In this document: positions 49,434-60,223 of the stretch, piece after piece
Layout of the letters: each line of letters opens with the position of its first letter
Numbering within the stretch: the stretch's first letter is position 1
DNA from: Elusimicrobiota bacterium
Lineage (GTDB): Bacteria > Elusimicrobiota > Elusimicrobia > UBA1565 > UBA9628
Length of the DNA stretch: 64,000 nt
NCBI GenBank assembly: GCA_016212855.1
Contig: JACRDP010000003.1
Coordinates: 29,283 to 93,282, forward strand
Direction: 5' to 3'
The notes under the pieces: model-generated
Databases searched by the model: none
The model's input: only the letters and a program-made list of their open reading frames with translations
Told to the model about the DNA's origin: nothing
Program-made: the position numbers and the translations under genes

Positions 49434-50501
49434 ATGAGCCGCCCTGCGGGGCCGCCTGACTCGAGCCGGATTTTTCTCTTCGGCGCCGGCCTGCTGATCG
49501 CCCTGCTCGGCCTGCGCATCTTCGCCCCGTTCCTGGGCGCGCTGCTCGCGGCCGCCTCGGTCGCCCTGCTGCTCGCGCCGGCCCGCCGCGCGCTGTCCGT
49601 TCGCGCGTCGGGCCGCCCCACCGGCGCCGCGCTGGCGCTCACGGCGCTGGTCTCGCTGCTGGTCGTCCTCCCGCTCCTTCTCTGCGGCTGGCTCATCCTG
49701 CGCGAGGCCGCGGACGCCTATCCGGCGGCGCGGGCCTGGCTGGAAAGAATGTCCGGACCGGACGCCCCGGCCTGGACGCCGTCGCCGAGATGGGCCGACG
49801 CCGTCCAAACGGCGCGCGGCTACGCCGCGATGCTGAAGCTCGACCCCAGGACGATCGTGCTCGAAAATCTCGATCAGGCCAGTTCCTGGGCCGCCCTGTT
49901 CACGCGCTCCGCGGTCGCGAACGCCGCGTTCGTTCTGCTCAATTTCGCCGTATTCATGGCCTCGCTGTTCCTGTTCCTGCGGGACGGGGCACGTCTGCGC
50001 GAACGCGCGACGTCACTCATTCCCTTGCCCGCGGATAAAACAGACGCCCTGATATCCCGCGTGTGCGACGTCATGCTCGCCGTGGTCAACGGCATGTTCG
50101 TGGTCGCCCTGCTTCAAGGCGCGCTCGCCTGGGCGGGGTTCGCGCTGTTCCGGGTACCTTTCTCATTTCTTCTCGGGGCGGCCTGCGTCGCGCTCTCTCC
50201 CATCCCCTTCGTCGGCTCGACGCTCGTCTGGGTGCCGGTCGTGATCTACGTCGCGCTGTCGGGAGCGACGATGAAGGCGGCGGCGTTGACGCTCTGGTTC
50301 CTGCTGATCGTCGGTCTCTCCGACAACATCGTGCGCCCGATCCTCCTGGGAGCGCGGATGAAGCTTCCCATTCCACTCGTCTTCATCGGCGTCATCGGAG
50401 CGATGAAGGCCTTCGGGCTCGCGGGGCTGTTCATCGGCCCGCTCGTGATCGCGCTCGCCTTCGGCCTCCTCGACATCATGCAGGAGAAGCGCGGCGCTTG
50501 A
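49434..50501 (+). CDS. AI-2E family transporter (PerM/YdiK-like)
   Basis: 355-aa protein with about 8 TM helices and the conserved PFVGSTLVWVP / SDNIVRPIL region. Confidence 0.8.
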   Translation: MSRPAGPPDSSRIFLFGAGLLIALLGLRIFAPFLGALLAAASVALLLAPARRALSVRASGRPTGAALALTALVSLLVVLPLLLCGWLILREAADAYPAARAWLERMSGPDAPAWTPSPRWADAVQTARGYAAMLKLDPRTIVLENLDQASSWAALFTRSAVANAAFVLLNFAVFMASLFLFLRDGARLRERATSLIPLPADKTDALISRVCDVMLAVVNGMFVVALLQGALAWAGFALFRVPFSFLLGAACVALSPIPFVGSTLVWVPVVIYVALSGATMKAAALTLWFLLIVGLSDNIVRPILLGARMKLPIPLVFIGVIGAMKAFGLAGLFIGPLVIALAFGLLDIMQEKRGA

Positions 50502-57676: not shown

Positions 57677-60223
57677 ATGAACCCGGATCGCTGGACGCTG
57701 AAGACCCAGGAAGCGTTTCAAGACGCGCAATCGCGGGCCGAGCGCCGCGGTCACGCGGAATTGACTCCCGAGCACCTCCTGGCGGCGCTCCTGGCCCAGG
57801 ACGGCGGCGTCGTCCCCGAAACGCTGAAGAAGGCGGGGGTCGACCCCAAGGCGGCGGACGCCGAGCTCGAAAAGCTCCTCGCGCGCCGGCCGCAGGTTCA
57901 GGGCGGCAAGCTTTCGGCGTCCGCGTCCCTCGAAGCCGTCCTGCGCAAAGCCGAGGACCGCATGCGGGCCCTCAAGGACGAGTTCGTCTCCGCCGAGCAC
58001 GTCCTGCTGGGCATCCTCGACGTGGGCGGCGACGCCGCCAAGCTCCTCGCGAAAACGGGCCTCACGCCCGACAAGTTCCTCGCCGCCCTGACGCAAACGC
58101 GCGGCTCGCAAAGGGTCACCACCCAAGAACCCGAGGCCACCTACCAGGCGCTCGAAAAATACGGCCGCGATCTGACCGCCGCCGCGCGCCGCGGCAAGCT
58201 CGACCCGGTGATCGGCCGCGACGCGGAAATCCGCCGCGTGATACAAGTCCTCTCGCGCCGCACGAAGAACAACCCCGTCCTCATCGGCGAACCGGGCGTG
58301 GGCAAGACCGCGATCGTCGAGGGGCTGGCCCAACGCGTCGCCTCCGGCGACGTGCCCGAGGGCATCAAGGACAAGTCCGTGATCTCCCTCGACCTCGGCG
58401 CCTTGATCGCCGGCGCCAAGTTCCGCGGCGAGTTCGAAGAGCGCCTGAAGGCCGTGCTCAAGGAGATCGCCGCCCAGGAAGGCAAGGTGATCCTGTTCAT
58501 CGACGAGCTGCACACCCTCGTCGGCGCGGGCGCCGCCGAGGGCGCCATGGACGCCGCCAACCTGCTCAAGCCGATGCTCGCCCGCGGCGAGCTGCGCTGC
58601 GTGGGCGCCACCACGCTCGACGAGTACAAGAAAGGCATCGAGAAAGACGCGGCCCTCGAGCGCCGTTTTCAGACCGTGCTCGTCGATGAGCCGTCGATCG
58701 AGGACACGATCGCCATCCTCCGCGGCCTCAAGGAGAAATACGAGGTCCATCACGGCGTGCGCATCCGCGACGCGGCCTTGGTGGCCGCCGCGACCCTGTC
58801 CTCCCGCTACATCCCCGACCGGCAGCTGCCCGACAAGGCGATCGACCTGATCGACGAGGCCGCCAGCCGCCTGCGCATGGAGATCGACTCCCTGCCGCAG
58901 GAGCTCGACCAGGCCGAGCGCGACATCCGCCGCCTCGAGATCGAGGCGACCGCCCTCAAAAAAGAGGGCGACGCGGGCTCGGCCCTGCGCCTGAAGGCCA
59001 TCGAGGCCGACCTCAAGCGTCTCAAGGCCTCCTCCGCCGACCTGCGCGCGCACTGGAAGAAAGAGAAGGACCTGATCGGAGAACTGCGCGGATTCCAGAA
59101 GCAAGTCGAGGAGCTCAAGGCCGACGAGCAGAAGGCCGAGCGAAGCGGGGATCTCGCCCGCGCGGCGGAAGTCCGCTTCGGCAAGGTGCCCGAGCTGGAG
59201 AAACGCCAGGAGAAGCTCCGCAAGGAGCTCGGATCGCTCCAAAAGGAGCGGCAGCTGCTGAAAGAAGAAGTCGGCGAAGAAGACATCGCCGGCGTCGTCG
59301 CGCGCTGGACCGGCGTGCCCGTCGAGCGCCTGCTCGAGGGCCAGGCCGCGAAGCTGCTGCGCATGGAAGAGCAGCTGCATGAGCGCGTCATCGGCCAGGA
59401 CGCCCCGGTCAAGGCGGTGTGCGAGGCCGTGCGCCGCGCCCGCTCCGGCCTCTCGGATCCGAACCGGCCGACCGGCGTGTTCCTGCTGCTGGGCCCGACC
59501 GGCGTCGGCAAGACCGAGCTCGCGCGCGCCCTGGCCGAGTTCCTCTTCGACTCCGACAAGGCCATGATTCGCATCGACATGTCGGAATACATGGAGAAGC
59601 ACGCGGTCGCCCGCCTCATCGGCGCCCCCCCCGGCTACGTCGGCTACGAGGAGGGCGGACAGCTGACCGAAGCGGTACGGCGCAAACCGTATTCCGTCGT
59701 CCTCCTCGATGAGATCGAGAAGGCCCACCCGGACGCCTTCAACGTCCTCCTCCAGGTCATGGACGACGGCCGGCTCACCGACGGCCAGGGCCGCACCGTC
59801 AACTTCACGAACACGGTCATCCTCATGACCTCGAACGCGCCGAAGGACGAGCTCAAGAGCCGCTTCCGGCCCGAATTCCTCAACCGCCTCGACGACATCC
59901 TCGAGTTCGCCTCGCTCGATCAGGAGCAGCTGCGGCGCATCGTGGACGTCCAGCTCGCCTCGATCCGCGCTCGCCTGGCCGGCCGCCGCGTCGAGCTGAC
60001 GCTCACCGACGCGGCCAAGGATCAGCTCGCGAAGGAAGGCTACGACCCGGCGTACGGCGCGCGGCCGCTCAAGCGCGCCATCTCGCGCCTCGTCGTCGAT
60101 CCCGTCGCCCGGCTGCTGCTGACCGGGGAGATCAAGGAAGGCGACCGAGTCGCCGCGGACGCCGGCAAGAACGGCCTGACCCTCCGCACCACCGGACGCG
60201 CCAAGACGTCCTCCGCGGGCTAG
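57677..60223 (+). CDS. clpB: ClpB disaggregase (Hsp100)
   Basis: 848 aa with a Clp N-domain, two AAA modules ([15 protein letters not shown] and [15 protein letters not shown]) and a long coiled-coil middle domain. Confidence 0.95.

Follow-up and report, generated by a model that had tools for sequence, protein, structure and literature searches.

What controls the dense set of stress genes at 50476-60223 and 30.7-50.5 kb of a 64,000-nucleotide stretch of an Elusimicrobiota genome (C28:29283-93282; hereafter the window), and do these genes form a dormancy programme comparable to that of mycobacteria? The initial annotation of this DNA had described a gene content resembling a dormancy or hypoxia-type stress regulon, related to the mycobacterial DosR regulon but wired to -24/-12 promoters. 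The analysis reported here points, with a probability of roughly 0.6, to a compact sigma-54 circuit that acts on -24/-12 promoters and drives a low-oxygen or redox-stress, growth-arrest regulon. The genes in question would make up one half of this regulon, which is predicted to comprise about 35-45 transcription units located mainly in two genomic islands, each unit beginning at a -24/-12-class promoter of the form YGGCCG-N3-CGTTGCG.

The window belongs to a metagenome-assembled genome (MAG) of an uncultured bacterium from groundwater (2.5 Mb, 73% complete; GC content ~0.66-0.70). Coordinates are window positions unless they are preceded by the name of one of the contigs of this genome (C10, C14, C24 or C28). 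Thirty relatives serve for comparison, and 20 of them have a completeness of 90% or more. Motif sites are scored in bits with a weight matrix, and enrichment is judged against the reversed genome.

The putative promoter motif and its genes

Aligned copies of the motif yield a 16-mer, YGGCCG-N3-CGTTGCG, whose information content peaks on the GG and on GTTGC. Its geometry is GG-N10-GC with TTGC at -12 in a TGG...TTGC context, which is that of a sigma-54 promoter. The simple pattern TGGC-N8-TGC occurs 23 times versus 9.5 expected, a count reached in none of 100 shuffles; the canonical TGGCAC-N5-TTGC has no match in the window, the local consensus departing from it at -22/-20. Across the genome 58 sites score at least 15 bits compared with 16 in the reversed genome, and the 15 that reach 19 bits or more are confined to C28, the contig of this window, and C24. 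The 9.7 kb of 50476-60223 alone contain five sites of at least 16 bits, against ~0.03 predicted by the reversed-genome control. The plain pattern GGCCGNNNYGTTGC is found 36 times in this genome (control 6), and in two congeners that played no part in building the motif the counts are 44 versus 6 and 41 versus 9. The genes and promoters of 50476-60223 are the following.

50476-53025, minus strand: P2A-type (Ca2+-type) cation-transporting P-type ATPase, 849 amino acids (aa) (Pfam; best match TIGR01522, 708 bits)
53037-53052, minus strand: ATPase promoter TGGCCGGATCGTTGCC, -24/-12-type, 11 nucleotides (nt) to ATG, predicted leaderless
53086-53101, plus strand: hsp20 promoter TGGCCGGGATGTTGCG, -24/-12-type, back-to-back with the ATPase promoter, 29-nt leader with GGAGG
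53131-53607, plus strand: Hsp20/alpha-crystallin, 158 aa (PF00011, 71 bits)
53618-55300, plus strand: ABC1/UbiB-type atypical kinase (PF03109, 250 bits), probably on one transcript with hsp20
55321-55478, plus strand: promoter AGGCCGTATTGTTGCG, then structured RNA copy 3 (small RNA or leader) with a terminator-like end
55479-56060, plus strand: stand-alone flavin mononucleotide (FMN) adenylyltransferase-like protein, the RibF N-terminal half (NCBIfam)
56122-56982, minus strand: tandem universal stress protein (USP), 286 aa (PF00582, two domains)
57019-57034, minus strand: tandem USP promoter GGGCCGTTTCGTTGCG
57072-57575, minus strand: CBS-pair protein, 167 aa
57615-57630, minus strand: weak candidate promoter GAGTAGGAACGTTGCA of the CBS gene, AG instead of GG at -24
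57649-57664, plus strand: clpB promoter TGGCCGGTCCGTTGCG, 12 nt to ATG, predicted leaderless
57677-60223, plus strand: ClpB disaggregase, 848 aa (Pfam)

All families named in the initial annotation are present, those of 50476-60223 by matches to Pfam and NCBIfam: the P2A-type ATPase, Hsp20, two tandem USPs, the CBS pair, ClpB, two phosphoribosyltransferases (PRTases), YtxH, rhodanese, PpsA, OsmC and hemerythrin. Its further claim, that these stress genes are wired to -24/-12 promoters, is supported by the alignment, by the enrichment and by the conservation of the motif upstream of orthologous genes described below.

Promoter behaviour and predicted leaderless transcripts

The position of the motif relative to genes is that of a promoter. 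A plausible same-strand gene start lies within 120 nt of 35 of the 58 sites scoring at least 15 bits, and in 17 of these 35 the start codon follows the 16-mer by 10-13 nt, a spacing seen at just 8 of 260 weak control sites. The other gene-linked sites have leaders of 23-63 nt, several of them with a visible GGAGG-type ribosome site. Such a two-peaked spacing is expected if transcription begins ~12 nt after the GC, as sigma-54 geometry dictates. The mRNAs of clpB, ppsA, the ATPase, the rhodanese and others are hence predicted to be leaderless, and about half of the target mRNAs would have their 5' end at the start codon or no more than 1-3 nt from it. No conserved -10-like hexamer is found between the motif and the start codons at 10-13 nt, and a consensus scan of the intergenic regions of 50-61 kb returned no sigma-70-type promoter, its single match lying inside the CBS gene. 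Divergent motif pairs are separated by gaps of -1, 10, 14, 23 and 33 nt.

A compact sigma-54-like factor with a candidate activator and kinase

A -24/-12 promoter calls to mind RpoN, and yet no match to canonical RpoN or to its Sigma54_CBD domain exists in this genome or in any of the 30 relatives, the 20 near-complete ones included. What the genome does encode are two open reading frames (ORFs) of ~350-360 aa with a sigma-54 DNA-binding domain, which score 55-60 bits against TIGR02395 (the rpoN equivalog model; cut-off 277) and whose homologues in Elusimicrobia MAGs are annotated as 'hypothetical protein'. The family alignment displays an MKQ...QRL N-terminus resembling region I, a helix-turn-helix (PSTVSRA) and an RpoN box (SRRTVNAVR), and the family profile matches Aquifex sigmaN (5UI5) at 4.9e-11. 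An AlphaFold2 model of the compact sigma factor (pLDDT 79) retrieves sigma-54 chains as each of its best 27 fold matches in the PDB, 25 of the 27 with a probability of at least 0.96, over 288-412 aligned columns.

The genome contains exactly two true bacterial enhancer-binding proteins (bEBPs), which score 233 and 186 bits on PF00158. Each adjoins one of the sigma-54-like genes, and each has the GAFTGA loop, the element that makes contact with sigma-54. Paralogue 2 (C24:102704-103786, 360 aa) keeps both arginines of the RpoN box (SRRTVNAVR) and is divergent from an operon encoding a PAS histidine kinase, an NtrC-type activator (REC, AAA+ with GAFTGA, HTH_8) and a REC protein. It is located inside the second motif-rich island, with motif sites on its flanks including one copy that fronts the sigma gene itself, and the kinase/activator operon is fronted by a weak copy of 12.8 bits. 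The best NCBIfam matches of the activator are AtoC, NtrC and ZraR. The kinase is cytoplasmic, its catalytic core is nearest to ZraS, and its PAS domain bears a weak likeness (39 bits) to the flavin-type PAS domains of NifL, MmoS and LOV proteins. A good candidate for the cognate bEBP and its sensor, which the initial annotation had not named, is thereby available in the NtrC-type protein and the adjacent PAS kinase.

In paralogue 1 the sequence SLRSIAQYR replaces the RR box, and its neighbourhood contains three copies of a different motif, CAT[AG][AT]AAATTGATC, at C24:9380 (minus strand), 21306 (minus) and 24066 (plus); this CATRAAAATTGATC type looks like a private promoter set, different from the GG-N10-GC stress motif. 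The probable reader of the stress motif is the compact paralogue 2, and not a canonical RpoN, in line with paralogue 1 lacking the RR box and adjoining another motif; paralogue 1 probably constitutes a separate, private circuit. The second sigma-54 module as a whole (C24:21401-24066; L004:3402-6082) consists of a REC-AAA+(GAFTGA) activator, a 70-aa DHp-like ORF (MATDLAAELVDLRHDINAK...) and paralogue 1.

The proposed mechanism follows the logic of sigma-54 systems. The compact 360-aa factor encoded at C24:102704-103786 would be the most likely reader of the promoters, which would be opened by the adjoining NtrC-family activator after its probable phosphorylation by the adjacent cytoplasmic PAS kinase. 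With motif copies at the sigma gene and, more weakly, at the kinase/activator operon, the circuit may self-amplify. Concerning the promoter class, then, the -24/-12 geometry proposed at the outset stands, while the canonical RpoN that such promoters imply is replaced by a divergent sigma-54-like protein as the likely reader.

Conservation among relatives

The footprint of the motif has been kept in evolution. In 15 other genomes, including three from another family of the order, the regions in front of USP orthologues and paralogues retain an island of GG...CGTTGC and the ribosome site where all else has diverged. Orthologues of the ATPase (63-80% identity) keep the motif 11-12 nt from the start codon in the relatives G017 and G011 and 19 nt from it in G015, and the copy upstream of the paralogue 2 sigma gene is kept in G010. 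A tandem USP gene is found ~1-15 kb from the orthologous sigma gene in at least 11 relatives. The excess of the motif is ~3.2-fold in genomes with a sigma orthologue of at least 50% identity, compared with ~1.5-1.7-fold in genomes that have no orthologue or only a homologue of 40-44%.

The predicted regulon and competing explanations

Outside the window the motif is linked to genes for pyruvate:ferredoxin oxidoreductase (PFOR), malic enzyme, a YwiC-like protein, a third tandem USP, a ribonucleotide reductase (RNR) with a TSCPD domain (class-II type; its site has AG instead of GG), Cys-rich Rrf2 regulators, an acetyl-CoA hydrolase/transferase-GNAT fusion, MoaA/MobA/MoeA and a cox-type oxidase operon. 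Two more radical-SAM proteins are encoded there, one of them with a doubtful site, as are two additional CBS proteins and another hemerythrin, the hemerythrin gene and one of the CBS genes lying in the island with no mapped site of their own. The protective cargo of the regulon would thus include tandem USPs, Hsp20, ClpB, CBS pairs, OsmC, YtxH, hemerythrins, the P2A ATPase, PRTases and a CFA-type methyltransferase, and its oxygen-independent or oxygen-sensitive metabolism PFOR, the class-II-type RNR, radical-SAM enzymes, molybdenum-cofactor synthesis, PpsA and malic enzyme. The cox-type oxidase operon, cyclic di-GMP enzymes and three paralogous small RNAs would complete the set. The combination of protective proteins with oxygen-independent or -sensitive enzymes suggests a regulon for entering and surviving low oxygen or redox stress, accompanied by growth arrest; both its co-regulation and its response to hypoxia are deduced from motif and gene content. 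The hypoxia or dormancy character ascribed to the genes by the initial annotation gains support from further low-oxygen hallmarks of the wider regulon (class-II-type RNR, PFOR, radical-SAM enzymes, hemerythrins), and the signal itself is a prediction from that content.

The same promoters, sigma factor and bEBP could also run a general stress, proteotoxic or stationary-phase programme that responds to heat, starvation, envelope or osmotic stress rather than to oxygen or redox state, with the likeness to DosR reflecting nothing but the ubiquity of USP, Hsp20 and ClpB. This reading is rather unlikely. In its favour, ClpB, Hsp20, OsmC, YtxH and the CFA-type methyltransferase belong to the textbook responses to heat, osmotic stress or stationary phase, the similarity to DosR members is at the level of families only, and the kinase resembles flavin-type PAS proteins weakly. 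It accounts poorly for members that typify the switch from aerobic to anaerobic life (PFOR, class-II-type RNR, three radical-SAM proteins, MoaA), for the two hemerythrins, the Cys-rich Rrf2 regulators and the terminal oxidase operon, and for the fact that the set of USP, alpha-crystallin, P-type ATPase and RNR is specific to low oxygen in Burkholderia (PMC3721108) and M. tuberculosis (PMC5309233).

The nature of the motif itself has also to be considered. It would be a regulator operator or a promoter of the sigma-70 family, of the extracytoplasmic function (ECF) type, if its GG-N10-GC spacing were coincidental, a view that might appeal in a lineage without canonical RpoN, where the enhancer search returned no site and many inverted pairs (GCAACG...CGTTGC) resemble operator half-sites. 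We regard it as improbable. A dimeric operator was rejected on the variable spacing of the pairs (-1 to 33 nt), and so was a reading of the CGTT block as half of an ECF promoter (GGAAC-N16-CGTT): the sequence 16-17 nt upstream is not conserved, and the gap of just 3 nt between the two blocks excludes a -35/-10 architecture. Single copies are oriented and stand at a fixed 10-13 nt from start codons, an interval that lacks any conserved -10 hexamer; the two blocks correspond to the TGG...TTGC elements of canonical sigma-54 promoters, and GAFTGA bEBPs and sigma-54-fold proteins are encoded in linkage to the motif. That the motif merely reflects the base composition of a GC-rich genome, and that the genes are a commonplace assortment of stress genes under no shared control, is already contradicted and has next to no chance of being right: near-matches are indeed abundant (82 one-mismatch matches versus 54 expected), but the excess over the reversed control is six-fold in three genomes, the sites cluster in two islands and are biased in strand and position relative to gene starts, and the footprint is kept upstream of orthologous genes.

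Several points weigh against the compact sigma-54 circuit with a low-oxygen role that is preferred here. Enrichment analysis of 7-mers in the 220 nt upstream of 35 promoters revealed no shared activator site, only the opposing promoters themselves, and the back-to-back promoter pairs 10-33 nt apart leave no space between them for a conventional enhancer. The polymerase-binding domain of the compact sigma factor goes unrecognised by sequence models, and formation of a holoenzyme is predicted from the modelled fold. The weight matrix was trained on sites of the window and is in part circular, which is mitigated by the plain pattern counts in other genomes; the membership of several predicted units is uncertain, the sites of the RNR gene, the CBS gene and RNA copy 2 having AG where -24 should read GG; and the correlation of motif excess with the sigma orthologue across genomes is weakened by incomplete MAGs. 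ClpB, Hsp20, OsmC and the USPs are just as compatible with a general proteotoxic or stationary-phase response, and the public sequencing runs that match this sequence are of DNA only, from one groundwater study.

Relation to known regulons

The DosR/DevR regulon of M. tuberculosis comprises about 48 genes and is controlled by the kinases DosS and DosT and the NarL-type regulator DosR, which acts through DosR boxes at sigma-70 promoters. Its members include USPs, HspX, Rv2626c (CBS), the ATPase Rv1997, Rv0571c and Rv2030c with PRTase domains, and the B12-type RNR Rv0570 (PMC5309233), and the operon Rv2028c-Rv2031c brings together a USP, a PRTase-domain gene and hspX (PMC4410610). The Elusimicrobiota locus shares with it the recurring families (tandem USP, Hsp20, CBS pair, P-type ATPase, PRTase, RNR), the association of a USP and a PRTase-domain gene in one operon (here 32195-34219), and a layout of numerous small transcription units that each carry a copy of a single motif. 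It differs in its -24/-12 promoters and bEBP, in place of DosR boxes at sigma-70 promoters, in belonging to another phylum, and in its additional ClpB, PpsA, PFOR, OsmC, hemerythrins, cyclic di-GMP enzymes and small RNAs. No nitroreductase, Tgs1, NarK2/NarX or DosR-type regulator was seen among the motif-linked genes, the genome itself not having been searched for DosR/DosS homologues; the motif-linked regulators are of the NtrC type with a PAS kinase.

The resemblance to the DosR regulon that had been proposed is upheld for the families and does not extend to orthology. The alignment of the USP with Rv2623 (3CIS/2JAX) covers 57 residues and scores 30 bits, none of the CBS protein's matches at E < 1e-5 was recognised as Rv2626c, and the PRTase comes closest to Thermus TT1426. 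The absence of a DosR box reported in the initial annotation is confirmed, GGGAC-N4-GTCCC having 39 two-mismatch matches versus 59 expected and none of them positioned at promoters. The FNR/Anr box (TTGAT-N4-ATCAA-type) has 11 two-mismatch matches versus 5.5 expected, none in the promoter regions of motif-linked genes.

A second such set is the lxa locus of Burkholderia cenocepacia, a low-oxygen cluster with six USPs, alpha-crystallin, a cation ATPase, RNR and signalling genes (Sass et al. 2013; PMC3721108). One motif recurs there at 17 intergenic points and at satellite loci, and the overlap with DosR has already been recognised (PMC3721108); the motif is an Anr/FNR/FixK-type palindrome, TGA-N6-TCA, at sigma-70 promoters (PMC3721108, PMC12973609). 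Both systems have a set of USP, alpha-crystallin, ATPase and RNR genes behind a single repeated motif. Unlike lxa, whose induction has been demonstrated in experiments, the present locus has no positioned Anr/FNR box and its induction is predicted. The locus is a member of neither the DosR regulon nor lxa and would be a functional analogue of both on a different promoter class, a case of convergence of content.

Compared with RpoN/NtrC-family systems such as NtrBC, ZraSR, AtoSC and PspF/psp, the predicted circuit has in common the GG-N10-GC promoter with TTGC at -12, a bEBP of REC-AAA+(GAFTGA)-HTH_8 architecture, a ZraS-like kinase core and a sigma factor with RpoN box and helix-turn-helix. 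It departs from them in the size of the sigma factor (360 aa), which scores 60 versus 277 bits on the rpoN model and has no Pfam core-binding-domain match, in the consensus TGGCCG/CGTTGCG versus TGGCAC/TTGCW, and in its back-to-back promoters, lack of a detected enhancer and predicted leaderless mRNAs for about half of the targets. A survey in 2011 reported sigma-54 and its activators to be absent from Elusimicrobium minutum, the only Elusimicrobia genome covered and the first of the phylum to be sequenced (PMC3162934). Our literature searches found no paper tying Elusimicrobia to a sigma-54 regulon and, in full text, none combining leaderless transcripts, sigma-54 and enhancer-binding proteins.

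It is conceivable, if somewhat short of an even chance, that the arrangement is order-wide, with compact sigma-54 having replaced RpoN and the circuit of PAS kinase, NtrC-type activator and sigma factor acting as the master switch of a largely leaderless hypoxia/dormancy programme with multi-copy small RNAs. If true, this would be the third independent control, after DosR and Anr/FixK, of one persistence toolkit (tandem USPs, Hsp20, CBS pair, P2A ATPase, PRTase, class II RNR), and the recurrence of that toolkit would imply an ancient functional module that has been repeatedly re-wired. Finding the same poorly understood proteins in a phylum far from Actinobacteria and Proteobacteria argues that they act jointly in surviving oxygen limitation, and it offers an independent system in which their roles can be deciphered. 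It also gives a sizeable predicted regulon to a sigma-54-like factor that annotation pipelines label 'hypothetical', and makes specific predictions: leaderless mRNAs from sigma-54-type promoters, back-to-back promoter pairs that function without enhancer space, and a PAS kinase as the candidate sensor.

Small RNAs and other features of the window

Three paralogous GC-rich structured RNAs are predicted in the window, at 46786-46945, 47596-47802 and 55337-55478, with promoters at 46770, 47580 and 55321. They share a common core ...CGCCGC-AGGGCCCGGACA...CGGCGATCCGGAG... and end in a terminator-like hairpin, GGGCCGAGCGGTTCGTAGCCGCCCGGCCTTCCTTTT. A search of the window against Rfam assigned them to no family and found only two tRNAs; the idea that the FMN-adenylyltransferase gene has a riboswitch in its 142-nt leader was rejected for want of an Rfam match. 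The Qrr small RNAs of Vibrio are likewise multi-copy and depend on sigma-54 and LuxO. The resemblance lies in three short paralogous RNAs, each with its own -24/-12-type promoter and terminator-like hairpin; the difference is that no sequence or Rfam relationship exists, and that two of the copies here are directly upstream of genes and could be leaders or attenuators rather than trans-acting RNAs.

The motif-linked genes of 30.7-50.5 kb are the following.

30689-31835, plus strand: promoter TGGCCGCTTCGTTGCT (30689-30704), 11 nt to ATG, then two paralogous proteins of no known family
31892-32192, minus strand: promoter TGGATGTTCCGTTGCG (32177-32192) and YtxH gene (31892-32134)
32195-34219, minus strand: operon of membrane-anchored rhodanese (33752-34219), tandem USP (32852-33742) and TT1426-type PRTase (32195-32842)
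34232-34247, minus strand: promoter CGGCCGGATCGTTGCG of the rhodanese-USP-PRTase operon, 12 nt to ATG
34216-36685, minus strand: promoter TGGAAGTAACGTTGCC (36670-36685), 12 nt to ATG, and PpsA (34216-36657)
36688-37068, minus strand: promoter TGGCCGTCGCGTTGCG (37053-37068) and 102-aa protein (36688-36996) of no Pfam family
37092-38753, plus strand: promoter TGGCGCATACGTTGCG (37092-37107), 66-aa ORF and HD-GYP-type (HD_5) protein (37317-38753)
38651-39360, minus strand: promoter TGGTGTTTTCGTTGCG (39345-39360) and second PRTase-family gene (38651-39319)
39375-44975, plus strand: promoter TGGCCGAATGGTTGCA (39375-39390), PilT-like ATPase, REC::PilB-like ATPase fusion, TPR protein and histidine kinase
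45319-45842, minus strand: promoter TGGACGAAGCGTTGCG (45827-45842) and hemerythrin-domain protein (45319-45816)
45853-46921, plus strand: promoter TGGCCGGTTCATTGCA (45853-45868) and PAS-GGDEF diguanylate cyclase
46770-47581, plus strand: strongest site of the window, CGGCCGTTTCGTTGCG (46770-46785), structured RNA copy 1 and radical-SAM gene (46946-47581); RNA copy 2 next, at 47580-47800
47803-50501, plus strand: promoter CGGCCGAAACGTTGCG (47803-47818), CFA-synthase-like methyltransferase, OsmC and AI-2E-family transporter

Some of these features merit comment. The 66-aa ORF (MTFSPTEPSRDKDAEIARLLGELADL...; 37120-37320, plus strand), which begins 12 nt past a motif copy, shares 4 nt with the beginning of the HD-GYP-type gene; a leaderless small protein may be encoded here, or the ORF may be no more than the 5' part of the transcript. 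Among the ORFs scanned near the operon of PilT- and PilB-like ATPases, none was seen to encode a pilin or platform protein. A strong site at 45143-45158 (plus strand, 19.8 bits) has no same-strand gene downstream, and transcription from it would enter the hemerythrin gene in antisense orientation; comparison ruled it out as a further copy of the small-RNA family. Where a stretch of lower GC content (6.0-8.0 kb, GC 0.62) has its edge, an isolated motif copy is found at 6787-6802 (plus strand, 16.5 bits), with no clear gene in the next 120 nt.

The 102-aa protein has a paralogue at C14:121626-121949 (minus strand), which has its own motif copy and is divergent from the third tandem USP; both proteins are ~100 aa in length and share ...W(M/T)(A/P)CR...GYWW.DWSGYENGEHEI.... 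At C10:9183-10918 a divergent promoter pair, TGGCACGATCGTTGCG (near the canonical TGGCAC) and TGGCCGTTTCGTCGCA, is associated with a ferritin/rubrerythrin-like di-iron protein and a membrane protein of the fatty-acid-hydroxylase family, which suggests oxygen-dependent lipid modification within the regulon. Two tRNA genes just 3' of clpB, at 60259-60345 (plus strand) and 62556-62626 (minus strand), form the right-hand edge of the motif-rich island.

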